Origin: Desulfurococcales archaeon
Lineage (GTDB): Archaea; Thermoproteota; Thermoprotei_A; Sulfolobales; Desulfurococcaceae
NCBI GenBank assembly: GCA_027022365.1
Contig: JALVYU010000026.1
Location: 563,320 to 627,319 of the forward strand
Length of the DNA stretch: 64,000 bases
Direction of reading: 5' to 3'
Notes under the pieces: model-generated
The model's input: the letters and a program-made list of their open reading frames with translations, nothing else
What the model was told of the DNA's origin: nothing
Databases searched by the model: none
Shown: in pieces, positions 2,108 through 64,000 of the stretch
How positions within the stretch are numbered: position 1 is the first letter of the stretch
How the letters are laid out: each line of letters starts with the position of its first letter
Translations under genes and position numbers: made by a program

Positions 2108-2137
2108 GATCTCGGAGAAACTGTATACGTCGAAATA

Positions 2138-3016: not shown

Positions 3017-3042
3017 ATTTTTCCTAATGGTGACTGATTAAT

Positions 3043-3687: not shown

Positions 3688-3725
3688 TTCCCAGACAAGG
3701 ATTCGAAGAAATATGGTGGAACGGT

Positions 3726-4295
3726 ATGGAGAAACCAAGACAAGGTATGCCTGTAACTCCCGGCGATTATCTTGGTGTGGAGGAAGAATACTTTCCAGGC
3801 TATGGAGCATACATCGACGATGAAGGGAACATTAGGTCTCAGCTTGTTGGGAGAGTATTAATAGATATTGTCAAAAGGACGATTGAAGTAAGACAAGTCA
3901 GGGGTAAGCCGATCATACCAAGGCCCGGTGATGTTGTACTAGGTATTGTTGAGACGGTATCTAATGACCTAGCATTTATCAGGATATACAATATCGAGAA
4001 CAAGCCCTCGCGTTCCACAGATTTCACTGGTGTACTGCATATATCACAGGTGAGCAACGAATATGTTGAAACAATGTATGATGTGTTGCGACTGGGAGAT
4101 GTTGTAAGAGCTAAGGTATTGAATAGTCTGCAACCATTCCAGTTAAATACTAAACACCCATCTTTCGGAGTAGTAGTTGCTTTCTGTAGCAAATGTGGAG
4201 AAATACTAAAGCTGAAAGATGACAGACTTATTTGCCCTGTCTGTGGAAGCGTCGAGAAGCGGAAGATAAGCTCTAAGTATTTCTTCAGGTGGTAA
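3726..4295 (+). CDS. csl4: Exosome complex RNA-binding protein Csl4
   Basis: VTPGDYLG, S1 domain (GVLHISQV..GDVVRAKV) and C-terminal Zn ribbon CSKC..CPVC..EKRKIS. Confidence 0.95.
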   Translation: MEKPRQGMPVTPGDYLGVEEEYFPGYGAYIDDEGNIRSQLVGRVLIDIVKRTIEVRQVRGKPIIPRPGDVVLGIVETVSNDLAFIRIYNIENKPSRSTDFTGVLHISQVSNEYVETMYDVLRLGDVVRAKVLNSLQPFQLNTKHPSFGVVVAFCSKCGEILKLKDDRLICPVCGSVEKRKISSKYFFRW

Positions 4296-4296
4296 A

Positions 4297-4944
4297 TTGC
4301 CCCTTCTTAAGAGGAGCTTCTATATCAAATGTCATGGTGATGAATGCCTTAAACTAGTCGAGCTGATCCGTGATAAGGCACCAGCGGTTGAAACGATGAA
4401 CATAACAATAGAGCAGTCCGGACTTAGGATAGACATGTATGGATATAAATCAGATGTACGCAATGCTTGGATCTATATAAAAAGACTAGTATCCGCATAT
4501 AAATCTGCCATTGTTGAAAAGAGGGGATTAAGAGAAATAAGTATCGATTTCCTTGTCGAAAAAGTTGGACGTACATTTCCTCCGCGGCTCCTAGAGTTTA
4601 TTGTCAGGAAGAAAGGTCATAAAGCCCGTGTTGAGGGAGATAGGATAATCACGGATGCTGATCTAGATGAAATCATCGATACAATTAAGAGAATAGTAGA
4701 AGTACTAGATAAAATACACTTCAGTGTGAAAGGTACCGCGTGTAAGTACTTCATTGTGGCCTCAGCCCTCATGGCCAATAAGAGCTACCAAGCAATTATT
4801 GAGGAGGGTTTACGAGCCCATATACTCGACAAGGATGAAGATAGAAGAATTATACTCAAGAAAGAGTGGCGTTCAGCCGTAGATCAGATCCTTAAAGTCC
4901 TAGACAGTGCGAATAATATAAAAGACAATAACTACGCCCTATAA
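4297..4944 (+). CDS. DUF2067-like archaeal protein
   Basis: 215 aa, CxxxECxxL N-terminus, position between csl4 and rpoL. Confidence 0.65.
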   Translation: MPLLKRSFYIKCHGDECLKLVELIRDKAPAVETMNITIEQSGLRIDMYGYKSDVRNAWIYIKRLVSAYKSAIVEKRGLREISIDFLVEKVGRTFPPRLLEFIVRKKGHKARVEGDRIITDADLDEIIDTIKRIVEVLDKIHFSVKGTACKYFIVASALMANKSYQAIIEEGLRAHILDKDEDRRIILKKEWRSAVDQILKVLDSANNIKDNNYAL

Positions 4945-4977
4945 TATTTTGAACGTACTCATTATTGGTGGAACGCC

Positions 4978-5253
4978 ATGAACGTAGAGGTAAAGCGCGT
5001 TACGGATAACGAAATAATAATCATTATTGAGGGCGAAGACGATACCATAGGCAACTTGATAGCAAAATCAGCTGTCCAACACCCTAACGTTGTCTATGCA
5101 ACATACAGAATACCTCATCCTCTCGAGAGAAAAGTCGAAATAATAATAAGTGTAGATAAGAATGCCGATCTTGGAAGTACTATCTCGGAGATAATTCAGA
5201 ATATCAAAGAGCAACTAGAGGAGTTCAAAAAGAAAATCGATGAAGCTTTATGA
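4978..5253 (+). CDS. rpoL: RNA polymerase subunit L (Rpo11)
   Basis: IEGEDDTIGNLI and ATYRIPHPL motifs. Confidence 0.93.
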   Translation: MNVEVKRVTDNEIIIIIEGEDDTIGNLIAKSAVQHPNVVYATYRIPHPLERKVEIIISVDKNADLGSTISEIIQNIKEQLEEFKKKIDEAL

Positions 5254-5564
5254 AAACCGAGTCAAGGCTATTAGTCATCAGCCATTGTAGAGACTATATT
5301 ATAGGAATCGTTTATCGAAGAAACAGTGTTGAGGAAATATATTTTGAGAAAAACACAAAGGTTCTACCTGGAAGATTCACAGATAAACTAAAGACAAGAG
5401 ATGAGATTACATACTGTATTTCATGTGATTCCTTATTAGACCCAGTAAATTGTAAACACAGAATATTTGCTAGTGCCTCGGATAATCTTGAGATCCTGCT
5501 AGAGAGATGCCGAGATCACGATTCAATCTGTGAGGTTATCAAGAGTACTATGATAAAACGTTAA
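5250..5564 (+). CDS. Hypothetical protein, possibly a degenerate DUF99-like fragment
   Basis: ATGA overlap with the rpoL stop; 104 aa, Cys-rich. Confidence 0.55.
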   Translation: MKTESRLLVISHCRDYIIGIVYRRNSVEEIYFEKNTKVLPGRFTDKLKTRDEITYCISCDSLLDPVNCKHRIFASASDNLEILLERCRDHDSICEVIKSTMIKR

Positions 5565-5668
5565 AACACTAGTACTTCTGCGTCATTAGCAGAGAATACT
5601 GCTAATAAACCGGTAAGATACATTACATTACTTCAAACAAGAAGTAGCAGGCATAAGGGCTGATAGAA

Positions 5669-6016
5669 TTGCCGAGATTTTGTCCAAAATGTGGGGGCTT
5701 GATGAAGCCTGTCAGGAAAAAAGATGGTGTCTATCTAGTTTGTATGAGATGCGGGTATGCCGCTAAGGCATCAACAGCTGATCTCAAGGGATACAGGATC
5801 TCTAGGAAAATAATGCATACTGAAAAAGAAAAAACCATCGTGATAACCGAAGAAGATCGTCTGAGAGGCCTCCCTATTACAAAAGAAGTAACTTGTCCAA
5901 AATGTGGGTTTCACGAAGCGTATTATTGGATGATACAAACCAGGGCGGCTGACGAGCCTCCCACGAGATTCTATAGATGTAGAAGATGCGGCTATGTATG
6001 GAGGGAGTATGAATAA
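5669..6016 (+). CDS. tfs: Transcription factor S (TFS/RpoM family)
   Basis: Two Zn ribbons and the acidic hairpin QTRAADEPPTRFYRC. Confidence 0.95.
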   Translation: MPRFCPKCGGLMKPVRKKDGVYLVCMRCGYAAKASTADLKGYRISRKIMHTEKEKTIVITEEDRLRGLPITKEVTCPKCGFHEAYYWMIQTRAADEPPTRFYRCRRCGYVWREYE

Positions 6017-6204
6017 TGTGTAGTGCTCCACCACAAACATGTGTAGATGTTAGCGAGATATTCGCTATGCTGAGGCAACTCGAGGATATGCTTAGCGAGG
6101 CATATTTTGTAACGCCACAACATATTGCATCGAGGCCTCTTATTTATAGATCATTACTGCTTGTTCGTTCTCTAATGAAAGAATATTGTCAGAGCAGGTC
6201 TTAG
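6016..6204 (+). CDS. Small hypothetical protein
   Basis: TAATG coupling to the tfs stop; 62 aa, helical-looking. Confidence 0.5.
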   Translation: MCSAPPQTCVDVSEIFAMLRQLEDMLSEAYFVTPQHIASRPLIYRSLLLVRSLMKEYCQSRS

Positions 6205-6260
6205 AGAATCTATTAATATCGAGTAAAGATTATTCATAAAATGTACAGTACACCGTTCTT

Positions 6261-7019
6261 ATGGGTGATATTTTGAGGCTCAGATTCATTGACGCCAGAG
6301 TATGGAGATATGCAATGAACGCTATCGGCAAGATAATAGATGAGGCAGCGTTTCGTTTCACCGAGGATGGATTGAGGCTAAGAGCTATCGATGCATCGAG
6401 AATCGTGATGGTAGACTTTACAATGAATAGAGAAAGCTTTGACGAATACGAAGTAAATAAAGAAGAAGTTGTTGGCGTGAATATGGAGGATCTGGTTAAG
6501 ATCCTGAGGAGAGCGGTGAAGGAGGATCAGCTTGAGCTAGAGACCTTGGAGGCTGGAAGGCTGGCTGTAAGTTTTATCGGTAAGGGCCGTAGAACTTTCA
6601 TAATTCCAAGCCTAGAGACTTTAGCTGAAGAACTACCGGAGCTAAATATACCGTTCACCGTTCATGTAAAGATGCTTCCTTCAGTATTCAGAGATGTTGT
6701 AAAAGAACTTGAACCGATCAGTGATGCAATAGAGTTTATCGTTAAGAAAGATGAAAGGAAGATAATCGCCAAAGCATCGGGAGATATAGTCGAGGCGGAA
6801 ATTGAGCTTACGGAAGAGAGTGGTGCATTAATAGAATTCAACGCCAAAGAAGACGCTAGGGCGGTATATACAATTGATTACCTCTCAGATATATCGGCGG
6901 CTGCCCAGGCGGCTAACGAACTGGTATTAGAGCTAGCATCAGCTGTTCCATGCAAATTAGAATACATATTGCCTCAGGAAGGAAGGTTAGTGTTCTATGT
7001 CGCGCCCCGCGTCGAGTAA
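6261..7019 (+). CDS. pcn: DNA polymerase sliding clamp PCNA
   Basis: IIDEAAF..GLRLRAIDASRIVMV and C-terminal FYVAPRVE. Confidence 0.95.
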   Translation: MGDILRLRFIDARVWRYAMNAIGKIIDEAAFRFTEDGLRLRAIDASRIVMVDFTMNRESFDEYEVNKEEVVGVNMEDLVKILRRAVKEDQLELETLEAGRLAVSFIGKGRRTFIIPSLETLAEELPELNIPFTVHVKMLPSVFRDVVKELEPISDAIEFIVKKDERKIIAKASGDIVEAEIELTEESGALIEFNAKEDARAVYTIDYLSDISAAAQAANELVLELASAVPCKLEYILPQEGRLVFYVAPRVE

Positions 7020-8133
7020 TCTTAGGCATTTAAAGAGTCTTTTCAGACAATACTACTCAACGGGCTGTCTAGAAGAGCCAGCGTATATTCATAGGAGAGA
7101 AATAGGCGTTCAACTAATAGGGGAGGCGACTTATCGTAGACACCTTTCTTTTCCTTCAATGACGATGTTGTACAAGTTCATTATAGAAAATCCGCCACTA
7201 CATCTTTACTATTCTTCAGCCTATTATGATGATCCTTCTGCGAAGGATATGGGGGCGAAGGGGTGGCGTGGCTCAGATCTGTTATTCGATATAGATGCGG
7301 ATCACTACCAGGGATGCAATAAAGCAATAACTTTTTGCACTAAATGCGGCAAGAACTTCGAAGGAATACATAAACAATGCCCCTCATGCGGCTCTACAAA
7401 TGTTATTGTTTATCCAATAATAGGTTTTGAATGTATTAAAAGAGCATATAATGATGCGATGAAAATACAGATTATATTGAAGGATGATTTCGGACTAAAG
7501 AATATTAAGGTATACTTTTCCGGGAATCGAGGATTCCATGTGAAGTGCTCTGATGACGAAATTCTCGACCTCACTAGTGATGAAAGGAGAGAATTAGCAA
7601 TGTATATATCATTAAACGGTTTAGAGCCTGCCTTGGTTTTTCCACCAATAACTAAAAGGAAGATCGTAATTTTTACCTCTCAAGAATATGGTATCAGAAA
7701 AAGAATTTTCATAGATTTGAACCGTAAAGACTTGTTGCGAAGAAGGGGCGCCTTATATGAAGCTGACTACACTGATGTATTATACTCTATCGATGATAAT
7801 CGAGTAGATATCGATACTGTTGTGACAATGGACATATCTCGGCTGTCACGTTTTGGCGGCTCAATTAATGGCAAGTCGGGATTAGTTGTTTCCTCTATTA
7901 GCGAACAATTACCTAGTGGTTATGCAGAGTTTTCCCCATGGGATGGAACAATTGTTATTAAGCCAATCGTGGATTTCTCTGGTCTACCTGTTCTGGACAA
8001 TAAACTTAACTTAAAGACCGGTATACCTATACGTGTTAAAACATATGTTGGACTATACCTAGCACTCAAAGGGCTTGCTAAAATAGAGAACATAGAGAGG
8101 GTGGAGATAAGGAAATGTATGATATCTTCCTGA
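6997..8133 (+). CDS. priS: DNA primase small (catalytic) subunit
   Basis: YYSSAYY, DLLFDIDADH, FSGNRGFH, IDTVVTMDISRLSR. Confidence 0.95.
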   Translation: MSRPASSNLRHLKSLFRQYYSTGCLEEPAYIHRREIGVQLIGEATYRRHLSFPSMTMLYKFIIENPPLHLYYSSAYYDDPSAKDMGAKGWRGSDLLFDIDADHYQGCNKAITFCTKCGKNFEGIHKQCPSCGSTNVIVYPIIGFECIKRAYNDAMKIQIILKDDFGLKNIKVYFSGNRGFHVKCSDDEILDLTSDERRELAMYISLNGLEPALVFPPITKRKIVIFTSQEYGIRKRIFIDLNRKDLLRRRGALYEADYTDVLYSIDDNRVDIDTVVTMDISRLSRFGGSINGKSGLVVSSISEQLPSGYAEFSPWDGTIVIKPIVDFSGLPVLDNKLNLKTGIPIRVKTYVGLYLALKGLAKIENIERVEIRKCMISS

Positions 8134-8609
8134 AGCTTGTTAGAGAGGAATTAACAACGGGAAAACTATTATCCCTACCTGATGCGAAGATCAGTGATTT
8201 CCAAGACTTTATAAGATCATCTGTTACAATGCTACATAATACTCCGTTAGAATCGAGAAAATTCTTCATCGAAGCCTATAAGAAGGCTATACGTGATGCT
8301 GAGAATTTGTTAAGAATAAGGGTTGCCAAGATATGTCTCGGTGCAAGACATGATGGTGAAACGTATGATTCGGAAATGCTTAGCTCTATTAGTGCTATCA
8401 TAGATTTTTACAGGGATCTTATTATTGGAGCATACATTATGCCTTCTAGGGATAGTGTCGTCGTTAAGTTCAAAACCGGTATTGAGATTAGTGGTAGAAA
8501 ATACAGAGCGGGTGATATAGCTCCTGTAGATATAAGAAAGGCGTTGGGTCTGTATATTCTCGGAGTAGCCGAACCTGTGAAACAACCTATATTTTACCAT
8601 TTACTATAG
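8115..8609 (+). CDS. GINS subunit Gins15/Gins51
   Basis: Follows pcn-priS; helical A domain with LLRIRVAKI, then beta-rich B domain YRAGDIAPV..ALGLYILGVAEP. Confidence 0.75.
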   Translation: MYDIFLKLVREELTTGKLLSLPDAKISDFQDFIRSSVTMLHNTPLESRKFFIEAYKKAIRDAENLLRIRVAKICLGARHDGETYDSEMLSSISAIIDFYRDLIIGAYIMPSRDSVVVKFKTGIEISGRKYRAGDIAPVDIRKALGLYILGVAEPVKQPIFYHLL

Positions 8610-8624
8610 TTTTTGTTTGGTCTT

Positions 8625-9065
8625 CTAGACAGCCATGTAGTAGTACAATAATAAGATCGACAAAATTGTTAGACCTAGCAGGCCGACAATCAATGTTAGA
8701 TATATGCGTGCAACCCCGGTTTCCTTCAAAGATCTGAACCCCTTAGGTTGCAGGGTGGGCTCAAAATGCGGTATCACAAATGCGATGAACAGGCTCAATA
8801 ACATAACGACCGTAACGACTAGGGGGACTCCAATTACCTGTATACCGGTTAAACCATAATTCTCGAAATACACTGTGAGTGCGCGCACCCATCCGGGAAC
8901 AATTGCTATAATTACGAGGCCAAGCAATGCAAGCACTAGTTTTGAGCTTTTCTCGATAACGTAATCAAACTCCAAGATATAGCTCAGATGCTCCCTCTTT
9001 ATCCTGGGCACATTCTCCACCCATAAGGTAATCATGTATTTGGTACTCGACGGCCTAACAGACAC
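8625..9065 (-). CDS. Hypothetical membrane protein (about 3 TM helices)
   Basis: Three hydrophobic segments; divergent from the STT3-like gene. Confidence 0.65.
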   Translation of the reverse strand: MSVRPSSTKYMITLWVENVPRIKREHLSYILEFDYVIEKSSKLVLALLGLVIIAIVPGWVRALTVYFENYGLTGIQVIGVPLVVTVVMLLSLFIAFVIPHFEPTLQPKGFRSLKETGVARIYLTLIVGLLGLTILSILLLYYYMAV

Positions 9066-9112
9066 TATTGGCTTTTTCTAGTAAATAAACAAATTTATTT
9101 TGCACGGCCGTA

Positions 9113-11197
9113 ATGCTTCTTAATATTGGTTCTAGGGACGTGGTGACGCTGGAAATGAATAAAAAGATGCTATTAGCTGGTGTGATCCTACTGGTTATAT
9201 CGTTGGTATGGTATTTCTACATATGCTTTGTTCTTGACAGTGCAAAATGGAGTGTCATGGACGGCGTAATAGCGTGGTTTCATCAACATGTGATCCAATA
9301 TATACGCTCTGGAGGAGATCTAACTGTTGATGCTCATCTACGATTTGTTTCCCCGAGAAATCTACTCTATTCACCAATACTTGTCGATAGAATTGTTGCG
9401 GCAACAAATATGGTTCCAGGTTATTGGACCTTAATAGCCGGTACTTTATTCATAGTGATGGTTTTCCTGATATCGATCTATGTGTTCAGAAACGGCATTA
9501 CTGCCGGGCTAGCAGCTATCTTATTCGCTACAACGCCGAGCTTCGTCTATTGGTTCAAGTACAACAACTATGGAGATTACACGTTGCAATTTCTATGGTT
9601 GATCACTATCTTGGTCATTGGTATTGGGATCAAGCGCAACAACAAGATCATTACGGTTCTAGGCTCTATAGTGGGCGGACTTCTATGGGTATTATGGAGC
9701 GGTGGCTGGGTAACGATGCTTGTTTACGCGGGTTTTCTCTCATTACTAATATATGCTGGCAGAATAAAGCCTGCTCACCTTGTCCCGGCGATTTCCCTGC
9801 TGGTCATTTCGCCCCTGCTCAATATTGTTACACAAACATATTTCATTACATTCTATCACGTACTCGGCTACGTCGCCCTAGCAATAATGACTATCGTGTC
9901 GTTCATAGAGTATCGAACAATCAGGGCTTCAGGCCCGCTGACCAGGGTCTCGTGGAGATTAATAGGGGTAGTAGCTGGCGCCGCTCTCACGGTGGCTGTA
10001 TCACTGGTCGCAAATCAATGCTATAATCTCGTCAACTACCCGGCATTTATAAAGCCTTACGAACTACCCCTTGATCTGGGCATTCTGGGAGTACTATCTC
10101 TGTTGGCCTTTATAGTACTTTTACGCGGCCGTATTCTCGGTAATCTCGAAGCTAGTTTTACTGTTTACGCTCTTTTCGCAGGATTCATAATAGGATTAAT
10201 AAGCGGCTTTGTCGATCATACAATGCCAGTATTTACCGTTGCTTCTATAGCTCCCCTCGTTGCCTATAGTATCTATACCATAGCATCGTTTACGTTTCGT
10301 CATACTGAGAGGCTAAAGAGTGTAGGGATTAAGATAGCCTACATTCTCGGCATCTCATGGATATTGATAGGTTCGATTATGGCTGGTGCCTTACCTTCAT
10401 ATGCGATGATAAACGAGCCTCCTAGGATATATTATGGTGATCTAACTAAGAACCTAATAGGAAATGCAACGATCACTAATCCTCCCCTCGTTCGAGCCCT
10501 AGATTTTATCAGAGAAAACACTACTGGCAATACTCTGATCATATGTTACTGGGGCTATAGCTACTGGGTTGTCGGATATATTGGTAACGCTTATACAATC
10601 GCTGATCCTGATGGGACGCTCTATGGCAAAAGATTGATCTCGTGGTTCTTCATGAGCGACGAATATACGGCTATTAACTTGATAAAACAAATCGTCGGGA
10701 ACACTAAGGACGTGAACGTATATGTGCTGGTTGCTGAAGCCATTAGTATCGAGAAAACCATGGGTGCTTCAAGCCTTAAACTAGCGTATATAGGACGCGT
10801 AATTCCGGGACCGAGAACAACTACTGGTGAACAAACACTCTATTATCAGCCAGTAGGTGATATTGCACGAATACCGACATATATTTCGGGAACAGGTAAA
10901 GCACTTGCATTTTACCTAGATACTTACCGTGTAAGATCCTTATTTGAGGCGCCGCTGGCCTGGAATAATGTTACCGAGCAGACAATGATTGTTCGGCTTA
11001 TACTCAATGCCATAAAGGCGCTGGGGTATCAGCCAATAAACGGTGTGTTATCGGAGCGGCCCATAACTAATATACCGGGCCTAAAGTTCTTTAAGTTGGA
11101 AAAAGCATTCATTGAGCCGCTATACAATGTCACGGCAGGGTTTAGATCGTTCCAGGTATCATACATGGTAGCAGTATATAAGGCTGAGCTCCCATAA
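9113..11197 (+). CDS. STT3/AglB-like GT-C fold membrane protein with a degenerate WWDYG motif
   Basis: About 13 TM segments then a soluble domain ALDFIRENT..ICYWGYSYWV..YTIAD, aligning to AglB AL.WL..NT..SWWDYGYWI..T.AD. Confidence 0.7.
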   Translation: MLLNIGSRDVVTLEMNKKMLLAGVILLVISLVWYFYICFVLDSAKWSVMDGVIAWFHQHVIQYIRSGGDLTVDAHLRFVSPRNLLYSPILVDRIVAATNMVPGYWTLIAGTLFIVMVFLISIYVFRNGITAGLAAILFATTPSFVYWFKYNNYGDYTLQFLWLITILVIGIGIKRNNKIITVLGSIVGGLLWVLWSGGWVTMLVYAGFLSLLIYAGRIKPAHLVPAISLLVISPLLNIVTQTYFITFYHVLGYVALAIMTIVSFIEYRTIRASGPLTRVSWRLIGVVAGAALTVAVSLVANQCYNLVNYPAFIKPYELPLDLGILGVLSLLAFIVLLRGRILGNLEASFTVYALFAGFIIGLISGFVDHTMPVFTVASIAPLVAYSIYTIASFTFRHTERLKSVGIKIAYILGISWILIGSIMAGALPSYAMINEPPRIYYGDLTKNLIGNATITNPPLVRALDFIRENTTGNTLIICYWGYSYWVVGYIGNAYTIADPDGTLYGKRLISWFFMSDEYTAINLIKQIVGNTKDVNVYVLVAEAISIEKTMGASSLKLAYIGRVIPGPRTTTGEQTLYYQPVGDIARIPTYISGTGKALAFYLDTYRVRSLFEAPLAWNNVTEQTMIVRLILNAIKALGYQPINGVLSERPITNIPGLKFFKLEKAFIEPLYNVTAGFRSFQVSYMVAVYKAELP

Positions 11198-11250
11198 TTT
11201 TCACTACATGAAAGTGTATCGGTAAAAGAGCCATTATCGGGTGAACGGCT

Positions 11251-12054
11251 GTGCCTATACCAAGAAAAGAATTACCCCGTGTAGGAGAATATGTTGTGGC
11301 GACAGTTAAGAAGATCTTCGATTATGGTGCCTACGTCACTCTCGACGAGTACAATGATATGGAAGCTTATCTTCCTTGGAGCGAAGTAGCATCTAGGTGG
11401 GTTAGAAACATAAGAGATGTAATCCGCGAAAACCAGAAGATAGTTGTTAAGGTCATTCGTGTTAACAGACGAAGAAAAACAGTTGATGTATCCCTTAAAA
11501 AAGTCCCGGACAATGAGAGAAGGCGGAAGATGCTGTGGTGGAAACGCTATCTAAAAGCTTCAAAGATTATTGAGCTAGTAGCTGAAAAGATCGGTAAATC
11601 GATAGAGGAAGCCTACAAGGAGGTTGTATGGAAACTCGAAGACTATTATGGTGACCCACTCTACGGCCTTGAAGAAGCAGTGCTCCGTGGCCCTGACGCG
11701 TTACGAGAAGCGGGTATACCAGAGGAATGGATAGAGCCACTCTATAACGAGGCGCTCCGCCACGTCAAGGTTAAAATGGTTAGAATACGCGGAATCCTAA
11801 CGCTGAGGTGTTTAAAACCTGATGGTGTAGAGAGAATAAGAGAAGTTCTCAAGGCCATCGAAGAAAACATTGTTAATGAGAAACAGAAGGTTAAAGGACG
11901 GGTTTATCTACTTGGTTCGCCAAGGTACGTACTAGAAATAACTGCTCCAGACTATAAGACTGCCGAGAGAATACTGGGCAATGCGTTGAAGAAAGCAGAA
12001 AAACTCGCCAAGAAGCTGGGTGTTGAAATTAGCTTCGAGCGTGAGAAGCGTTGA
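11251..12054 (+). CDS. eif2a: Translation initiation factor aIF-2 alpha
   Basis: LPRVGEYVVATV..DYGAYVTLDEY S1 domain; GSPRY..APDYKTAE. Confidence 0.96.
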   Translation: MPIPRKELPRVGEYVVATVKKIFDYGAYVTLDEYNDMEAYLPWSEVASRWVRNIRDVIRENQKIVVKVIRVNRRRKTVDVSLKKVPDNERRRKMLWWKRYLKASKIIELVAEKIGKSIEEAYKEVVWKLEDYYGDPLYGLEEAVLRGPDALREAGIPEEWIEPLYNEALRHVKVKMVRIRGILTLRCLKPDGVERIREVLKAIEENIVNEKQKVKGRVYLLGSPRYVLEITAPDYKTAERILGNALKKAEKLAKKLGVEISFEREKR

Positions 12055-12251
12055 AGTGGCTGATGCGTAGATGCTCTAGGTGCGGCAGATATACGCTCCG
12101 ACATGATAGGTGTCCGTATTGTGGCGGAGAACTATATGTGCCGCACCCGCATCGATTCAGTCCTGATGATAAGTATGTTGCCTACAGGATTGAAATGAAG
12201 AGGAAAACAGGTGTTTTAGCTCTAGATAAACCTGTTTATTACGATCCCTAG
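12051..12251 (+). CDS. nop10: H/ACA RNP protein Nop10
   Basis: CSRCGRYTL..CPYCG..PHPHRFSPDDKY; directly follows aIF2alpha. Confidence 0.95.
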   Translation: MKWLMRRCSRCGRYTLRHDRCPYCGGELYVPHPHRFSPDDKYVAYRIEMKRKTGVLALDKPVYYDP

Positions 12252-12257
12252 TATTCG

Positions 12258-13349
12258 TCATTGTTTCTTTAGTAGCGAGTAAAGATAATCTATCATTTTC
12301 AGGCCCGAGCCCGTGAGCGGCAATAATATGGGTTCTTCTACATCACCTTTATCTTCAATGTATTTAAGAATACCAGCTAGTGATGCGGCGCTTGTCGGTT
12401 CAATAATGAACCCCATTCTTATCAGATCCTTTAAAGAAGATATTATTTCATCATTGTCTACTACCACGATATCCCCATACTTCTTTATGATCTCGGCTAT
12501 TTCGTGTTTACGTGGTGGATCACGAACCATTATGCCATCGGCAATGCTTGAGTCGCCGCGGCATTGTTTTCCATAGATTAATTCATAGATGGGTGCCGAT
12601 GAAACGCCTTGGATGCCTATAATGCGGGGCATTGTGCCGATAAGCCCTAGATCTACTAGGTCCTTGAATCCCTTATATATGCCTAGCAGGAGCGAACCGC
12701 TTCCGATGGGGACAACCACGGTTCCGTGTTTAAACCCTTCTTCGTATGCTTCATATGCTATAGTTTTATTAGCGTGATAGAACAAGGGGTTCCAAGTATG
12801 AGCTACGTAGCAGGTAGTCTCATCTATTAGCTCGAGAACCTTTTTGGCCGCATCAGGCCTAGTCGGGGCCTCTATGATTTTTCCCCCTAGGAGTCTAATG
12901 AGGTTCTTCTTACCTTCTGGCGCGTACTGGGGCATAACAATGGCTGCTTGCATGTTGTTTATCCGAGAATAGAGTGCTGTAGCTATGCCTGTGTTGCCGC
13001 TTGTATCTTCCACTACTTTTGAGTATCCCAGTGAGGAAGCATAGGATAGAGTTAGTGATGCCCCCCTATCTTTGAAGCTCCCACCTGGATTCAGATACTC
13101 GAGTTTAAATAGGAAGCTTTTACCCTTAATGCTCCTTTTGATTAGAGGGGTTTCCCCCTCACCGAGATATTTGATATTCTGTACTGGTAGCATGGATCTA
13201 TATCTTAGTATTCCGCGGCCTTTAGGCCTCCATTCAATGTCGTAGATCAGGTCTAGAGGGGCGCCGCATTTTGGGCATTTCCAATAATAGTGTTTGCCTA
13301 GCTCTTCTTTAAACCCGCAATTCCTACAATAATATGTCGGGTTCCCCAT
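12258..13349 (-). CDS. Threonine synthase-like PLP-dependent enzyme (fold II) with N-terminal Zn ribbon
   Basis: LGEGETPL, KLEYLNPGGSFKDRG, EDTSGNTG, EPTSA, LTGSGLK. Confidence 0.85.
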   Translation of the reverse strand: MGNPTYYCRNCGFKEELGKHYYWKCPKCGAPLDLIYDIEWRPKGRGILRYRSMLPVQNIKYLGEGETPLIKRSIKGKSFLFKLEYLNPGGSFKDRGASLTLSYASSLGYSKVVEDTSGNTGIATALYSRINNMQAAIVMPQYAPEGKKNLIRLLGGKIIEAPTRPDAAKKVLELIDETTCYVAHTWNPLFYHANKTIAYEAYEEGFKHGTVVVPIGSGSLLLGIYKGFKDLVDLGLIGTMPRIIGIQGVSSAPIYELIYGKQCRGDSSIADGIMVRDPPRKHEIAEIIKKYGDIVVVDNDEIISSLKDLIRMGFIIEPTSAASLAGILKYIEDKGDVEEPILLPLTGSGLKMIDYLYSLLKKQ

Positions 13350-13471
13350 AGAGATTACCTTGAAGAGTCCTGTTATTTAGAGTTATAAGGACGTAATATT
13401 ATATTGGCTTATCTCTTCGAAGAGATGATTCTGTTACTAATCATATGTTGTGCGGATTTTTGTGAGGAAGG

Positions 13472-13546
13472 CGCCGCCGCCGGGATTTGAACCCGGGTCA
13501 CGGGCTCGACAGGCCCGCATACTAGGCCGGGCTATACTACGGCGGC
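13472..13546 (-). tRNA. tRNA-Asp(GTC), no intron
   Basis: Cloverleaf GCCGCCG...CGGGC-CT-GTC-GA-GCCCG...TTCAAAT...CGGCGGC-G. Confidence 0.97.
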
Positions 13547-13872
13547 AGTTCCGGTTTCGATAATATTCCCGAGCCGGGGTTTTTATTTTTCACGGTTAAC
13601 ACATTACGGTTCCCGGTAATGCTATAGGCGAGCTTACCGGGTTTTATATGGTTGTATCGTGTTTTCTATAGTTGTTTTTCTATGTATATTGCTGCTGTAT
13701 ATTAGAGACTAGAGAGGAGCCCATAGATGGGTCTCTAAAAGGGTTGCTCAAACGAACTATATCATATATGTAGGGTTACCTCGTCTGTTTTTAGGTGCTT
13801 TGAGGGAGCTTGGTAGAGTATTAAGCATTAATAATATTATGTTGAGAAATCATGTAAAGAGGCGGGTCTACA

Positions 13873-14547
13873 TTGAAAATTTATGGACATAGAGCTAACA
13901 CGGTCAGAATAATAAGATATTATCTGAGAACAGGCGTCAAGGCTTTCGAGGTCGACTTGGCCCTGGACGAGAGTAGTGGAAGGATTGTTCTTAGGCATGG
14001 ACCGAGCCCTATCAAGAGGCCGAGTATTCCAGGACGGATCATGGCTTGGATAGACTATCATTTCTTCTACCGTGATCCATTGATAAGGAAAATTAGTTTT
14101 GAAGAAATACTAGATCTAGCGGAAAAACATGATATTGAACTATTGCTAGACATAAAGGATCTAAGGACTGCCGGGAAACTCGCCGATGTTCTCTCTACCG
14201 TTGATCCACGTAGGCTCGGCCTTGCCGTTTCTTCCGAGGATCATAGAGCGGTAAAATATCTGGCTGAAAAGCTAGGCAGAGTTCTATTGCTGGTAAGCCT
14301 CAGTATACGGCCTATAGACGTTGCACGTTTAGTTTCTGATGCATCGGCAAATGGTGTTTCAATAAAATACACGTGGCTCACACCCGAGCTGGTAGCTGAA
14401 TTAAAGGATAAGGGATACATGATCTATGCTTGGACGATCAATGATCCTAAGGAGCTAGAAGCAATGTATAATCTAGGAGTTGACGCAGTCATAAGCGATT
14501 GCCCTGATAAACTCATAAAGTATTTGTCGAAGCAGAATCGATTATAG
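13873..14547 (+). CDS. Glycerophosphodiester phosphodiesterase family protein
   Basis: IYGHR, FEVD, LLDIK, YAWTIND, GVDAVISDCP. Confidence 0.88.
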   Translation: MKIYGHRANTVRIIRYYLRTGVKAFEVDLALDESSGRIVLRHGPSPIKRPSIPGRIMAWIDYHFFYRDPLIRKISFEEILDLAEKHDIELLLDIKDLRTAGKLADVLSTVDPRRLGLAVSSEDHRAVKYLAEKLGRVLLLVSLSIRPIDVARLVSDASANGVSIKYTWLTPELVAELKDKGYMIYAWTINDPKELEAMYNLGVDAVISDCPDKLIKYLSKQNRL

Positions 14548-14586
14548 TGGGAGGTCTGAAGCCGTGAATAGGCTTGGCGGCAGAAA
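14535..14586 (+). ncRNA. Candidate degenerate C/D-box sRNA
   Basis: CTGA at 14556-59, GCCGTGA, then guide GGCTTGGCGG + CAGA. The guide is complementary to 16S CCGCCAAGCC at 63925-63934. Box C is poor. Confidence 0.3.
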
Positions 14587-14601
14587 CGATTAGAACAAAC
14601 C

Positions 14602-14763
14602 CTACTTTACCTTGAAGCTTCTCTTAGGCCTGAGATTCTTGCTCTTACACCGCCTACATTTTGTAGCGTTAGGCGGATTTATCGCTCCACACTTCCTACA
14701 GATCTTTTTATTCATTACCCTGTTGTATACTATTCTTAGTTTAACCGGATCAGTAATCGGCAT
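14602..14763 (-). CDS. rpl40e: 50S ribosomal protein L40e (below the ORF-track length cut-off)
   Basis: Manual translation: [53 protein letters not shown]. Confidence 0.95.
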
Positions 14764-14890
14764 AACTCCACACCAGCCCCCTACTCAACTCTTACCTAGA
14801 ACAATGGAGAACAACGCCTAAATAAATATGTTTTCTTAAAACCAGGGAAAACCAATATAAGACACATACATGGTAGATATCGACCTGGAA

Positions 14891-14954
14891 GGGCCCGGAC
14901 TGCGAGCGGAAAGCGATGAAGAACCTAGGCCACGAAAGCCCGGCGCAGTCTACA
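14891..14954 (+). ncRNA. Structured GC-rich RNA in the tRNA-His leader (H/ACA-like candidate)
   Basis: 8-bp stem GGACTGCG/CGCAGTCT closed by ACA, with a K-turn-like GA..GATGA inside; lies downstream of a TATA-like AATATAA at about 14854. Confidence 0.45.
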
Positions 14955-14959
14955 AAGGT

Positions 14960-15061
14960 GGCCCGGGTAGCTCAGCCTGGTTAGAGCGCCGGGCTGTGGC
15001 CTCCGATGAAAACGAGGAGGCGGAAACCCGGAGGTCCCGGGTTCAAATCCCGGCCCGGGCC
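14960..15061 (+). tRNA. tRNA-His(GTG) with encoded G-1 and a 26-nt intron at 37/38 (15000-15025)
   Basis: Cloverleaf; BHB with central CTGT/GCGG helix and bulges GGC and AAA. Confidence 0.95.
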
Positions 15062-15174
15062 CTTATTTTCTCACTAAGCCTATCTATTTAGAATATACCG
15101 CCAGCAATACACACCTGGTATATAATTTCTTTTTTCTTATTCACTCTTCCAAGCTCTCAGAAATTTTGAATTCA

Positions 15175-16321
15175 TTTTCAAATTTTCTTTCTTTGTTTCC
15201 AAGATACAACATTATTAAGTGAGGGATCTACACGTTCCTCTTTCAATTTTTGTTTATTGTTTCTCTCGCCTACTATCGGCTCACGAGCGACGATGTATTG
15301 TTGGAGATGATGCTTTCAATTTTTGTTTATTGTTTCAGCCTAGTTCTTGATAGGCTCAAGGATGATACTATTTCTTTCAATTTTTGTTTATTGTTTCCGC
15401 AAGGTATGTTTGCTGACGCATGTTCTGAGAGGAACCGATATCTTTCAATTTTTGTTTATTGTTTCACAATACCAGTACATACTACCATACATTAGACTGC
15501 TAACTTTCAATTTTTGTTTATTGTTTCTTTCCTGTAGTGCTTCAGGGCTTGTACTATGATGTATGCGCTTTCAATTTTTGTTTATTGTTTCGGGTGAGGA
15601 ACGGTAGCGGGGAGATCGTGGCGGAGTCTACTCTTTCAATTTTTGTTTATTGTTTCACAATCCATGATCATCCGGAGATCAGGATCTATTATGCTTTCAA
15701 TTTTTGTTTATTGTTTCACCCCTACGACCTAGCCGACGCAATGAGTAGAGCATACAATACTTTCAATTTTTGTTTATTGTTTCAAGGCGATCAAGAAGAA
15801 ACCCACCGATAAGGTGGAGAGCACCGCTTTCAATTTTTGTTTATTGTTTCGGATGAGGGGAGCCGGCCCCTGGTTGTTGATGATAATGGTAATACTTTCA
15901 ATTTTTGTTTATTGTTTCTTGCCGAAGGAGTGATGTTACCAATAGAACGGCTAATGACGGGCTTTCAATTTTTGTTTATTGTTTCGAACTGTACTGAGCG
16001 CGTATGTATTATGTATCTTGGCTCCAGCACTTTCAATTTTTGTTTATTGTTTCGATCGGCGGATTCGTCAGCGACATAATACACGCAACCGGTAACTCTT
16101 TCAATTTTTGTTTATTGTTTCGGTATCGTGATGACTAGGCTTGAGCCTTTACGCCATACACGTGCTCTTTCAATTTTTGTTTATTGTTTCATACTAAAAC
16201 ACCACGAGGATGTGTTACAACATACTATGAGCTTTCAATTTTTGTTTATTGTTTCTTCCTCCAGAGGAGCCTGAGCCTATACTTACCAGGAAGTGGGCTT
16301 TCAATTTTTGTTTATTGTTTC
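15175..16321 (-). CRISPR. CRISPR array: 17 identical 24-bp repeats (GAAACAATAAACAAAAATTGAAAG on the minus strand; 15240-16321) with 16 spacers of 37-49 bp, plus a degenerate trailer repeat (about 15175-15199) and its spacer
   Basis: Repeats counted directly. The ATTGAAAG 3' end, the degenerate repeat at left and the AT-rich leader at right give minus-strand orientation. Confidence 0.97.
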
Positions 16322-20819: not shown

Positions 20820-20927
20820 TGGAGCCGGGGGCGGGATTCGAACCCGCGGTAAAGCGGGTGTCCGTGACCCCCTGTGCTAGGGTCGTGCCCTGCAGCCCGC
20901 CGCCTTAGGCCGCTCGGCCACCCCGGC
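20820..20927 (-). tRNA. tRNA-Cys(GCA) with a 30-nt intron at 37/38 (20860-20889), CCA encoded
   Basis: GCCGGGG...GCGGG-CT-GCA-G/A-CCCGC...CCCCGGC-T-CCA; relaxed BHB/BHL. Confidence 0.93.
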
Positions 20928-21311: not shown

Positions 21312-21427
21312 GCCGCCGTAGCTCAGCCTGGCAGAGCGCCGGACTCATACGGCGCCAAGAAACCCGAAGTCGCGGGTTCGGCCAGGGGGAGATCCGGTTG
21401 TCCCGGGTTCAAATCCCGGCGGCGGCA
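21312..21427 (+). tRNA. tRNA-Met(CAT), elongator type, with a 42-nt intron at 37/38 (21350-21391)
   Basis: GCCGCCG acceptor, CCGGA-CT-CAT-A/A-TCCGG, TTCAAAT loop. Confidence 0.93.
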
Positions 21428-58064: not shown

Positions 58065-58478
58065 ATGGGTTATGGAAAAGGAATACTGGTCACTTTCATA
58101 CTTCTAATATTCATCGGATGGATACCGATCATAGGCCCCCTCATAGCGGGATTCCTAGGAGGATACGTTGCGAAAAAAGGGCTAGGCGGGGGAGCACTAG
58201 TAGGATTCATAGGCGGGCTCCTAGGAGGAATCATATGGACCATAATCCTAGCCTTTCTAGGAGGAGCAGCTCTCGGAATAATTGGGGCAATTGCAGGCCT
58301 ACTGCTAGGCGGAGCAATAACTATGATGAGCATAATGAAGGCTATAACAGCCGCCATAGGCGGATTAATAGGCGGACTAATAGCGGGCAGAAGACAATCC
58401 ATCAAATCCCCGCCTAAAGAAAGCCGAAGCACTAGCACAGAATATGAAGTTAAAGGTAATTCACAACGAGGAGAATAA
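58065..58478 (+). CDS. Gly-rich membrane protein (DUF5518-like)
   Basis: PIIGPLIAGFLGGY and GxxxG-rich TM helices. Confidence 0.7.
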   Translation: MGYGKGILVTFILLIFIGWIPIIGPLIAGFLGGYVAKKGLGGGALVGFIGGLLGGIIWTIILAFLGGAALGIIGAIAGLLLGGAITMMSIMKAITAAIGGLIGGLIAGRRQSIKSPPKESRSTSTEYEVKGNSQRGE

Positions 58479-58560: not shown

Positions 58561-58600
58561 GGCCCGCGGGGATTCGAACCCTAGACCTCCGCCGTGTGAG
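58561..58600 (-). repeat. att-like copy 1 of the tRNA-Val 3' half
   Basis: 37/40 identical to 60234-60273. Confidence 0.93.
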
Positions 58601-58759
58601 AACACAACCATATTCATCGCTGTATATCGACAATATGTACGTAGTCTAAAAAGAATACCAATAAGGATATCGATTATTATTAGATATGTATGAGGATTGC
58701 TGTATCTTGGGCTAGCTTTAAGAGAGCTGAGTAAGTCAAATAAGCTCTGGGGAGATGGT

Positions 58760-58996
58760 GTGGAGCGGAAGTTTAAATGGATTGAAATAAATCCAAATGT
58801 TTGTCACGGTAAACCGGTCTTCAGGGGTACAAGAGTTCTGGTAGCTGATGTTCTTGAAATGATTGCATCCGGTATGAGTATTGAGGAGATTCTAGAGGAG
58901 TACCCCCAGCTAAACAAGGAGATGATTCTTGAGGCAATAGCTCTTGCAGCTGAACTCCTTAGGAGGGAGAGGCGTGTCATACCGATTTCTGCTTGA
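58760..58996 (+). CDS. DUF433 antitoxin (VapB45-like), cassette 1
   Basis: IEINPNVCHGKPVFRGTRV..GMSIEEILEEYPQL. Confidence 0.92.
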   Translation: MERKFKWIEINPNVCHGKPVFRGTRVLVADVLEMIASGMSIEEILEEYPQLNKEMILEAIALAAELLRRERRVIPISA

Positions 58997-59318
58997 TGAA
59001 AACGTACCCAGAACAATTTTTAAGCTACTGAGACGGAAAGGCTTCCACGCTGAGTATGTACCTCAAGGTATTGATGATAGAACAGTTATTAAAATAGCTC
59101 GAGAAAAGAACTTGATATTAATTACAAGAGATAGCGACTTTGCTGATGAGTTGAGGTACCCGCCTAACTCTCATCCGGGCATTATTGTGCTTCGTATCCA
59201 TCCCTCACTACCAAGGGTAATGGCTGAACGCCTTGTATTCTTGTTGGAGAATATCAAAGAGCTGAAAGGGAGGATTATACTAATATATAATGATAAAATA
59301 GAGATTGTTGGAAGATAA
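58974..59318 (+). CDS. DUF5615 PIN-like toxin (VapC45-like), cassette 1
   Basis: FLLDENVP, GIDD, LITRDSDF, GIIVLR; overlaps the antitoxin. Confidence 0.9.
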   Translation: MSYRFLLDENVPRTIFKLLRRKGFHAEYVPQGIDDRTVIKIAREKNLILITRDSDFADELRYPPNSHPGIIVLRIHPSLPRVMAERLVFLLENIKELKGRIILIYNDKIEIVGR

Positions 59319-59377
59319 TAATTCTCTTATGAATAATACTATGAATCTCATCGACATGTAATGTGTTACCAGCTAGG

Positions 59378-59422
59378 TGGTGGGCCCGCGGGGATTCGAA
59401 CCCCAGACCTCCGCCGTGTGAG
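59378..59422 (-). repeat. att-like copy 2 of the tRNA-Val 3' half, including CCA
   Basis: 43/45 identical to 60229-60273. Confidence 0.95.
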
Positions 59423-59570
59423 AACAGAACACAATAATATTCACAAACTCATATTATTGATATTCCTGTAATCCAAAGCGATAACCATAACCGATATCAA
59501 CAGTGATATTATTTGTCTTACGATATGCATGTCTCGGTTAGAATAGTCTATAAAGACCTTTGTTATAATA

Positions 59571-59816
59571 GTGTTTAGGGAGAGGCTGTTGACCGAAGTC
59601 GAGAATAGAATAGTGGTTGACCCCAAGATTATGGGGGGCAAACCCGTAATAAAAGGAACAAGGATTCCCGTGTATTTTATCCTAGAATTATTATCTAATG
59701 GATGGAGTATAGATGATATTTTAAGAGAATATCCGCATCTCTCAAGAGAAGACGTGTTAGCAGCTATCAAGTACGCTGCCAAGGTATTGAGGGAGGAAGT
59801 TATTGTCAAAGCCTAG
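59571..59816 (+). CDS. DUF433 antitoxin (VapB45-like), cassette 2
   Basis: IVVDPKIMGGKPVIKGTRIPV..GWSIDDILREYPHL. Confidence 0.93.
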   Translation: MFRERLLTEVENRIVVDPKIMGGKPVIKGTRIPVYFILELLSNGWSIDDILREYPHLSREDVLAAIKYAAKVLREEVIVKA

Positions 59817-60159
59817 ACTTCTAGCAGATGAAAATATACCTCAAACTGTTATTATTGCTCTTAGAGAAAAGGGATATGACATAGCCTCGGTCTGGGAGCT
59901 TAGACCGGGTATGAGCGACGAAGAAGTAGTAGAGCTAGCTATAAAGGAGTCGAGAATTATAATAACGTTTGACAAAGACTTTGGAAGAATAGCACTCTTA
60001 AAACCTAGTGTTCCAGGAATAATTTTACTAAGAATACCACCATTAAATCCCCTATACATAGTGGAAAGAGTGCTCTCGGCATTAGAAAGAATAGAAAATC
60101 CATACAATAAGTTAATCATAGTCAGAAAGAGAACAATAAAAATAATCACATTACGTTAA
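59803..60159 (+). CDS. DUF5615 PIN-like toxin (VapC45-like), cassette 2
   Basis: LLADENIP, GMSDEEV, IITFDKDFG, GIILLR. Confidence 0.92.
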   Translation: MSKPRLLADENIPQTVIIALREKGYDIASVWELRPGMSDEEVVELAIKESRIIITFDKDFGRIALLKPSVPGIILLRIPPLNPLYIVERVLSALERIENPYNKLIIVRKRTIKIITLR

Positions 60160-60228
60160 TAACTATCCTAGACGATGATGGGACACCTTACCCATTGTAG
60201 GTATTACTGAAGATAACGATATTAATTA

Positions 60229-60306
60229 TGGTGGGCCCGCGGGGATTTGAACCCCGGACCTCCGCCGTGTGAGGGCGGCGTCCTAACCAGGCTAGACGAC
60301 GGGCCC
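60229..60306 (-). tRNA. tRNA-Val(CAC), CCA encoded
   Basis: GGGCCCG...CCGCC-CT-CAC-AC-GGCGG...TTCAAAT...CGGGCCC-A-CCA. Confidence 0.97.

Positions 60307-63650: not shown

Positions 63651-64000
<350 letters not shown>

Follow-up and report, generated by a model that had tools for sequence, protein, structure and literature searches.

Toxin–antitoxin cassettes with a shared conserved arm in tandem behind a tRNA-Val(CAC) gene of a Desulfurococcales archaeon

Two toxin–antitoxin cassettes behind tRNA-Val(CAC)

We analysed a stretch of 64,000 nucleotides (hereafter the window) from contig JALVYU010000026.1 of a Desulfurococcales archaeon, in which two small toxin–antitoxin (TA) cassettes lie in tandem behind a tRNA-Val(CAC) gene. 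The window's own genome (1.74 Mb) is designated G000; the remaining G numbers and the L numbers denote sampled genomes and loci, and C denotes a contig. The intact tRNA gene occupies positions 60229..60306 of the minus strand (ARAGORN; Rfam tRNA, 63.9 bits), and its 3' 45 nt (60229-60273, minus) form the attachment core on the attL side of the proximal cassette. Two partial copies of the tRNA 3' half follow on the same strand, copy 2 at 59378..59422 (tRNA positions 34-78, 45 nt, 95.6% identity by blastn) and copy 1 at 58561..58600 (tRNA positions 34-73, 40 nt, 92.5%). The tRNA identity of both starts at the anticodon loop CTCACAC, and both deviate from the gene by the same two substitutions, C>T and A>G. 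A repeat search returned the three copies as one direct-repeat family with starts at 58561, 59383, and 60234 and spacings of 822 and 851. We refer to the tRNA-proximal unit of 851 bp as cassette B and to the distal unit of 822 bp as cassette A. Copy 2 is accordingly assigned as attR of cassette B and attL of cassette A, and copy 1 as attR of cassette A, abutting the chromosome on the DUF5518/gcvH side.

In cassette B, a short, cargo-specific P' arm (60160..60228, delimited by sequence) lies between the tRNA 3' end and the stop codon of toxin B, a PIN-like DUF5615 protein of 118 aa encoded on the plus strand (59803..60159; PF18480, E=5.6e-25). This toxin is 83% identical at the amino acid level to the copy in G013 and 64% identical to that on contig 36 of G032. 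Its open reading frame (ORF) overlaps by 14 nt at the toxin start with that of antitoxin B, a DUF433 protein of 81 aa (59571..59816, plus; PF04255, E=3.1e-28). The P arm (~110 nt; 59423..59534, minus; nhmmer E=8.4e-20) follows, with ATGCATATC at 59522-59530, TGATATC-like repeats, and a core-adjacent TGAATAT..TTGTGTT. Cassette A is built in the same way. Its P' arm (59319..59377) starts with CCTAGCTGGTAA, and its junction with the core, CCA/CCTARCTGGTAA, is identical in G000 and in the A cassettes of G004 and G032 contig 36. The longest ORF of toxin A (DUF5615, PIN-like; 58944..59318, plus; PF18480, E=1.8e-19) encodes 124 aa, and that of antitoxin A (DUF433; 58697..58996, plus; PF04255, E=4.5e-24) encodes 99 aa. 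Judged by their homologues, which in the case of the toxin start with VSYRFLLDEN, the true starts are probably the GTG codons at 58974 (114 aa) and 58760 (78 aa), respectively, and the two ORFs overlap by 23 or 53 nt depending on the choice of start. The P arm of cassette A (58601..58691, minus; nhmmer E=4.8e-16; alignment A3) has one TGATATC repeat fewer than that of cassette B and carries ATACATATC at 58683-58691.

Both pairs matched PF04255 and PF18480 above cut-off with the antitoxin gene first, and by domains and gene order we classify them as predicted type II TA systems composed of a PIN-like (DUF5615) toxin and a DUF433 antitoxin. The TA ORFs were the sole plausible genes among the ORFs of units A and B; neither a recombinase nor a transfer gene was found. 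The two antitoxins share 48% identity (63 aa) and the two toxins 37% (112 aa). A previous description of the locus, made from the nucleotide sequence alone (the sequence-only reading), had reported three copies of the tRNA-Val 3' half starting at CTCACAC, two substitutions common to both partial copies, and intervals of 822 and 851 bp holding only a DUF433-DUF5615 pair in the same orientation. ARAGORN, Rfam, blastn, and the repeat search bore out the first two statements, and the ORF and Pfam analyses the third. Its estimate of 93-96% identity between repeats versus roughly 40% between the TA proteins also agrees with the measured values.

A conserved arm, variable arrays, and horizontal spread of the cassettes

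When 19 att fragments from the window and 14 related loci (15 loci in all) were aligned, conservation on the tRNA strand extended over at least 110 nt immediately 5' of the tRNA-Val core, and this stretch constitutes the conserved arm; a second alignment, A3, comprised 35 copies. The arm consensus reads CATGCATATC..ATG.TAA.TGATATC.....TTGATATC....TTTGGATTACATGCATAT.....ATATGA....TG.ATAT..TTGTGTT; CTCACAC and the remainder of the core come next. Together, arm and core form a repeat of ~155 bp. The short att-proximal motif AACACAA..ATATTCA (repeat family D3), which the sequence-only reading had noticed in both cassettes, is the reverse complement of the last 20, core-proximal nucleotides of the arm. 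It is thus real and represents the end of a much longer conserved element. When the 1.74-Mb genome was searched with a hidden Markov model (HMM) of the arm, E<1 was reached only at the two window copies (8.4e-20 and 4.8e-16; the next match was at 1.5), so a match of the arm at the locus is not a matter of chance. The junction of arm and core, TTCTCACACGGCGGAGGTC, gave 0 matches in viral contigs.

Within the arm, the blocks ATGCATATC, TGATATC, and TGCATAT are kept across at least nine families, while the spacers differ. RNAalifold applied to the 35 arm and core copies predicted base pairs only in the part corresponding to the T-arm of the tRNA and none in the arm. Blocks in the form of short direct repeats without conserved pairing are expected of protein-binding sites rather than of a folded site. 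The arm is present whatever the family or orientation of the cargo, and P' arms are specific for the cargo type, without conservation between types. Because the cargo is antisense to the tRNA in cassettes A and B and sense in others, the arm is not simply a TA promoter.

The arm HMM matched 17 of the 18 archaeal loci from the scan of genome contigs, on which it was run without the 12 bacterial loci of that scan, and 19 of the 33 metagenome loci. With R1, a model built from the sequence of arm and core alone, arm-spanning matches of at least 58 bits were obtained in at least 19 of the 151 genomes of the order, representing 9 of 13 families; this count is a lower bound among the matches listed, beyond which there are 380 weaker ones. 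The raw R1 tally (143/151) was set aside, as it consisted mostly of core-only matches to tRNA genes, and arm-spanning matches alone were used. An order-wide pattern count, which also captures tRNA-Val(GAC/TAC) genes, was likewise not used as such.

Besides the A and B types, the cargo comprised PemK/MazF with an AF2212-like antitoxin, two proteins of the ParE/RelE superfamily (RelE1 and RelE2), PIN_2, and PIN. The orientation is fixed for each type, with A and B antisense to the tRNA and MazF, RelE, and PIN in sense. Forty-six units had both borders; five metagenome loci that duplicated genome contigs had been removed from this set, in which some redundancy between metagenome-assembled genomes (MAGs) and metagenomes may remain. 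One unit measures 142 bp, 44 fall between 672 and 1202 bp, and one measures 8561 bp, with a median of ~800. Of the 44 units of 672-1202 bp, 42 matched one of seven reference toxins across 70% or more of the toxin's length, and the remaining two matched an antitoxin only. Several units contain broken toxins. The 142-bp unit, from G018, consists of the arm only.

The composition of the arrays varies in number, order, and content of cassettes, as a comparison of the tRNA-Val locus across relatives, suggested in the sequence-only reading, revealed. Read outward from the tRNA, four genomes of one genus carry B-A (G000), A (G004), MazF (G005), and RelE1-RelE2 (G002). The flanks of these arrays were 84-91% (left) and 91-96% (right) identical to those of the window. 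Further arrays are RelE1-MazF-RelE2-A in G158, ..MazF-RelE1-A-B in G013, RelE1-A in G006, and RelE2-A in G303. G032 has B-A on contig 36 and, at tRNA-Val(GAC), MazF-A on contig 42, where the A copy retains the CAC-type loop and a CTCACAC core. The array of G052 reads PIN-MazF-A-14-kb unit-RelE1 remnant, and metagenome contigs contained MazF-A-B, RelE1-MazF, MazF-RelE1, and B-RelE1-PIN. Both B-A and A-B, and both MazF-RelE1 and RelE1-MazF, were thus found, and these opposite orders rule out differential loss from one ancestral array.

The similarity of individual cassettes does not follow the relatedness of the genomes. The cargo of cassette A in G000 is 95.3% identical to that in G004 and 90.3% identical at the nucleotide level (over 638 of 692 nt) to that on contig 42 of G032, a member of another family, whereas the values for G006 and G303 from the same family are 82% and 71%. 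The corresponding identities of glyA are 97% (G004), 65% (G032), 76% (G006), and 70% (G303). Cassette B shares 93% of its nucleotides with a copy in a Zestosphaera MAG. Fixed, recurring borders combined with a similarity that is incongruent with genome relatedness imply that the cassettes spread after miniaturisation. We conclude from these sequence comparisons that the cassettes share one architecture, form variable arrays, and have spread horizontally as units.

The same arm also bounds larger cargo. In the tRNA-Val array of G052 (L158 = G052:C5:266000-284500, ~1200-15400), a 14-kb unit encodes a BrxL ATPase (PF13337, E=3e-111) plus its N domain, a methylase-like protein of 1002 aa, a protein of 1100 aa, and PaREP1, and by gene content we regard it as a BREX-like defence island packaged like the TA cassettes. 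In G013, a gene for a GmrSD-type restriction endonuclease lies directly before a cassette-type arm on two contigs of one MAG (L039:2-1267 and L072:2-2762). A variant contig has an extra gene for an SDH-type ClpP-like protease between the GmrSD gene and the arm. Both GmrSD contigs start inside the GmrSD gene, so that the proximal border lies off the contig.

A search for further units of tRNA fragment plus TA pair, also proposed in the sequence-only reading, uncovered a second array in G000, behind tRNA-Arg(CCG) (C11:87731-92300; L149:1232-5801). Fragments of the tRNA-Arg 3' part are located at C11:88599-88646, 89554-89572, and 90548-90595, ~0.9-1.0 kb apart, and two of them are preceded on their 5' side by a short motif particular to this array, GGACGTTTCCTTATA. 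The cargo comprises an AF2212-like protein with a truncated PIN protein, an unnamed antitoxin with PemK, TumE with a partner, DUF433 with DUF5615, and an orphan AF2212-like protein; the content differs among relatives. Other partial tRNA matches were noted in G000. On C26, a 60-nt partial copy (92%; 538359-538418) lies ~4 kb downstream of tRNA-Val(GAC) (534247-534324), and the segment 534247-538415 may be another integrated element. The same contig has an exact 43-nt copy of the 5' half of tRNA-Ala(GGC) at 526294-526336, 14.5 kb from the gene. On C7, a 5' part (31 nt, 151904-151934) and a 3' part (45 nt, 155753-155797) of tRNA-Lys(TTT) lie 3.8 kb apart and away from any tRNA gene called by ARAGORN.

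As to its surroundings, the array of the window is flanked by tRNA-Val and an aspartate dehydrogenase gene on one side and by genes for a DUF5518 membrane protein, gcvH, and glyA on the other, and the DUF5518/gcvH-side flank is kept in G004, G005, and G002. The DUF5518 gene (58065-58478), on the chromosomal flank, contains internal glycine-rich repeats (family D2). The window further holds the 5' end of an archaeal 16S rRNA gene (63652-64000; Rfam, 287 bits), cut by the window end, and Rfam tRNAs at 14961-15061, 20823-20927, and 21312-21427, which were missed by ARAGORN without the intron option. A scan for promoters and terminators of the bacterial type was set aside as inapplicable to an archaeon. 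The sequencing runs that contain the window stretch are labelled hydrothermal vent metagenomes.

Integrases and the origin of the arrays

The search of G000 for tyrosine recombinases, which the sequence-only reading had recommended, returned three PF00589 matches, none of them at the locus and none from the family that targets tRNA-Val: a XerA-like gene (C7:10574-11566), a 382-aa gene without a tRNA nearby (C26:77475-78623), and one fragment. The first two were unrelated by BLASTP (E=0.93) to the tRNA-adjacent family described below, and the integrase of locus L088 as the query found no match in G000. The 382-aa recombinase gene is part of a mobile-looking, tRNA-free region (C26:77475-84000) that also includes a serine-recombinase-like ORF (79885-80496) and a 113-aa integrase fragment (83540-83881).

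At L088 (= G145:C82), a tyrosine-recombinase gene (417-aa ORF; PF00589, 27.3 bits) lies 24 nt beyond tRNA-Val(CAC) and precedes cargo that includes a PLD-type nuclease and a GIY-YIG protein. The far end of this element, 8.4 kb on, is formed by a cassette-type arm (E=1.4e-16) and a core, beyond which lies a MazF cassette. A homologue in the same position in G128 is 76% identical and forms an intact ORF of 450 aa (L150:1779-3131; PF00589, 34.9 bits; PF16795, 24.9 bits, below cut-off). A second large element ending in the arm, L056, stems from an Acidilobaceae MAG; its contig stops before any integrase, and it shares one gene with L088 (59% over 93 aa). The sequence-only reading held that full-length, integrase-encoding relatives containing the A and B pairs would identify the units as simple relics; the two large arm-bearing elements, L088 and L056, lack these pairs. 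The elements of G145, G128 (near copies), and G090 have ATGCATATC four times in direct orientation immediately 3' of the tRNA. Counting matches with at most one mismatch, L088 contains 15 copies versus 2.75 +/- 1.6 expected, and 0 of 200 shuffles reached 15. The 9-mer ATGCATATC beside the integrase gene recurs in the cassette arm, where it makes up the conserved blocks.

Homologues of the L088 integrase were detected in 56 of the 301 sampled genomes (E<=1e-8) and in none of the four genomes of genus g1 examined (G000, G003, G004, and G005). Of 30 loci examined, 24 had a tRNA gene next to the integrase match, and the closest homologues reside at tRNA-Val(CAC). A ~38-kb element at tRNA-Val(TAC) of G073 was dismissed as a partner, as its ends gave no arm-HMM match at E<=10; it carries an intact 452-aa integrase gene by the tRNA and a 50-nt distal repeat (L081:2108-3633, L082:6685-6734). 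At L018:103-570 (G035) and G008:C1:365090-365281, an intact tRNA-Val(CAC) gene is preceded on its 5' side by a coding stretch that resembles an integrase N-terminus and extends into the gene; in L088 and G128 the integrase lies on the opposite side.

With moderate confidence, we consider A and B to be integrase-less mini integrative elements of hyperthermophilic Desulfurococcales, similar to the cis-mobilizable elements (CIMEs) of bacteria and stacked by site-specific integration. Each element would consist of a type II TA operon, the ~110-nt ATGCATATC/TGATATC arm, and the 40-45-nt tRNA-Val 3' half. Arm and core are most simply explained as the attachment site of the tyrosine integrase family whose genes lie directly 3' of tRNA-Val(CAC). 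Larger integrase-bearing elements would decay to an addiction module plus arm, as bacterial CIMEs arise, and later elements would insert into the tRNA gene or into att copies already present, giving tandem stacks; in G000, B would thus have arrived after A and inserted on its tRNA-proximal side. Resident units would be excised and moved in trans by an incoming integrase-bearing element, or would travel along with it. At present A and B would be stranded, because G000 has no integrase of the tRNA-Val family, and the TA pairs would make their loss hard. The view that these are non-autonomous TA-only cassettes moved in trans thus holds in so far as the units are discrete, contain a TA pair only, and lack an integrase; movement in trans and the agent that moves the cassettes are what we infer.

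Such cassettes probably originated through the erosion of larger elements. In size, the units form a series that begins with the arm-only unit of 142 bp, continues with TA-only units, and ends at 8.6 kb with an element whose integrase is decaying. The first ~10 nt of the other arm of the integrase element persist in some cassettes, MazF cassettes retain AACTTAT from this arm, and the other side of the arm-only unit of G018 starts like the P' arm of the integrase element. The size series, the G018 unit, and the AACTTAT of the MazF cassettes fit an origin by decay. The alternative offered in the sequence-only reading, two larger elements eroded to their addiction modules, is thus probably right with regard to origin; as an account of in-place relics it conflicts with the spread of the units after miniaturisation.

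Several observations weigh against site-specific integration by this enzyme family. Only in L088 does a single contig carry the tRNA, the integrase gene, and a cassette-type arm. A frameshift in this integrase gene places the C-terminal catalytic part in other frames, so that the copy is either decaying or mis-assembled. The contigs of G128 (intact integrase) and G090 (fragment) stop before a distal arm, and except for G128 the copies of the tRNA-Val(CAC)-specific integrase in the 301 sampled genomes are decayed or fragmentary. The cassettes do not carry the four-repeat P' arm of the integrase-bearing element and may therefore be poor substrates. Terminal overlaps, a sign of circular assembly, were not found in 15 short contigs. 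An inspection of joints covered the assembled contigs of four of the 18 runs listed, in which the two relevant joints rest on short sides (27 and 35 nt). Both come from run X5: one leads from 59404 to 60228 (skipping 823, side 27), the other from 60271 back to 59426 (846 back, side 35). The first could mark a site with A alone and the second a circle or tandem of B, but related arrays with similar arms would explain both equally well, and the joints were not used as evidence. In addition, the linkage between arm and cargo is loose, with a mean arm identity of 64% for the same cargo type in different genomes and 62.5% for different types, and array cores carry shared variants specific to each genome (G000, G002, and G013 each have their own). 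The latter two findings indicate that homologous recombination or gene conversion between the repeats acts as well. As markers of the crossover point within the core, variants are confounded by this homogenisation within arrays.

A broader proposal, which we put forward only tentatively, is that of a tRNA-anchored platform for cassette capture in hyperthermophilic Desulfurococcales, functionally parallel to integrons, in which the ~155-bp module would correspond to attC, the tRNA gene to attI, and the integrase would act in trans. Transient elements would bring in a tRNA-Val-specific integrase, and single TA units would leave as ~0.8-kb circles and re-stack across families. The same arm would also recruit larger defence islands, such as the BREX-like island of G052 and the GmrSD gene of G013, and a parallel system would operate at tRNA-Arg(CCG).

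The ~155-bp repeats clearly undergo homologous recombination in the arrays, and as the sole mechanism this is the main rival to stacking by an integrase. Once formed, the cassettes would then be moved, lost, and traded between genomes through these repeats and the universally conserved tRNA-Val 3' half, and no site-specific recombinase would act any more. Cores and core-proximal arm bases are homogenised within G000, G002, and G013; arms have been swapped between cargo types (the RelE1 arm of G158 is 88% identical to the A arm of G004), as have the P' starts of two cassettes on contig 42 of G032; and most array-bearing genomes examined, among them 0/4 of genus g1, lack a cognate integrase. However, the arm blocks are constant across at least nine families while their spacers vary, and the 9-mer is repeated by the integrase gene, which points to selection for protein binding and is not required by homology alone. 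The tRNA-proximal side, moreover, offers only 40-45 nt of homology. We therefore regard shuffling without an integrase as an unlikely explanation on its own.

Still less probable are simple relics, that is, units that never moved, each the in-place remnant of a separately integrated full-size element. Degeneration following successive integrations is the standard view of archaeal tRNA loci in the parts of the literature covered (PMC3119797, PMC3718332), and the 8.6-kb element with its frameshifted integrase and a truncated gene, the 142-bp unit of G018, and the broken toxins compose a decay series. One and the same cassette with its P' junction recurs, however, in different genomes, families, array positions, and tRNA-Val isoacceptor genes, with a similarity incongruent with genome relatedness. 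Four congeners have kept flanks and four different contents without intermediates, and independent erosion would not bring 44 of 46 units into the range of 672-1202 bp. Tandem duplication of one TA cassette in situ, followed by divergence, would account for the common gene order and orientation and the similar length, but it is refuted by the A-only site of G004 and by relatives elsewhere that are far closer than A and B are to each other (90% nucleotide identity for A, in another family; 93% for B, in Zestosphaera), with proteins 37-48% identical between cores 93-96% identical; the sequence-only reading had rightly judged it unlikely.

Significance and comparison with known systems

TA modules are abundant in hyperthermophilic archaea, and their mode of spread is poorly understood. 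The locus provides a concrete vehicle for such spread, a TA pair attached to one conserved, putative recombination arm and exchanged between archaeal families. Within the order, units of this kind occur in at least 19 of 151 genomes sampled. Testable candidates for site and enzyme are provided by the ATGCATATC arm and the G128-type integrase. The arrays constitute an archaeal counterpart to the CIMEs of bacteria and to the TA cassettes found in chromosomal integrons, and they suggest that defence islands at archaeal tRNA genes can be built piecewise. In genome annotation, such arrays can be recognised by partial tRNA copies ~0.8 kb apart.

In the literature consulted, which comprised few subscription journals and no supplements, we found no account of TA-only cassettes that share an arm and lie at tRNA genes of archaea, and no paper containing both DUF433 and DUF5615. 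Supplementary tables of PMC7253208 and PMC3718332, outside this scope, might list small tRNA-gene remnants. The TA pair itself is ordinary. PIN-COG2442 (DUF433) is a predicted type II system in the sections available of Makarova et al. (2009, PMC2701414), with the DUF433 antitoxin upstream of and overlapping the PIN-like toxin; compared with these systems, the novelty of A and B lies in the packaging.

Archaeal tRNA genes are described, in the text covered of PMC3119797, PMC3718332, and PMC7253208, as carrying direct repeats of their 3' part, successive integrations, and decaying captured elements of the SSV and pNOB8 types. The same passages report tandem integration for non-suicidal (type II) integrases and remnants of 1-15 genes of viruses or plasmids. 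The cassettes resemble these remnants in the direct repeats of the tRNA 3' part and in serial integration at one tRNA gene. Unlike SSV-type elements, the units of the window have no intN/intC or integrase remnant, and no ORF of at least 40 aa runs across the core copies. Unlike the remnants described in those passages, TA-only units of several toxin families have a conserved arm in common.

Sedentary chromosomal integrons, for example those of Vibrio (in the portion available of PMC13108822), likewise consist of an ordered array of small cassettes with TA systems, a repeated site at one cassette end, one fixed chromosomal entry point, and a shuffled order. The integron-like nature put forward in the sequence-only reading is nevertheless one of analogy only. 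There is no IntI, attI, or Pc beside the array, whose neighbours are the tRNA and aspartate dehydrogenase genes and DUF5518/gcvH; the repeat has no conserved attC-like hairpin; the cargo occurs in both orientations relative to the tRNA, and each cassette presumably has a promoter of its own; entry is at a tRNA gene, and nearly all of the array is TA.

The closest parallel is offered by CIMEs. These bacterial elements have lost their genes for integration and transfer and kept attL and attR (Pavlovic 2004, Bellanger 2011, via Guedon et al. 2017, PMC5704250). According to the part of PMC5704250 covered, they form tandem arrangements with related elements at the 3' ends of target genes, which often encode tRNAs, and are thought to be born by decay and mobilised by an incoming integrase-bearing element. 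Like CIMEs, A and B are bounded by attL and attR as direct repeats of the 3' part of the target, contain neither a recombinase nor a transfer gene, and have an att sequence in common with an integrase-bearing element of the same target (the arm and core of L088, with L056 as a second large relative). They differ in their archaeal hosts and in the archaeal family of the integrase beside the tRNA. The units are shrunk to a single TA operon of ~0.8 kb and have one conserved arm only, and mobilisation is here predicted from sequence. Finally, they make up a recurrent, horizontally shared repertoire of at least seven cargo types in arrays of at least five units.

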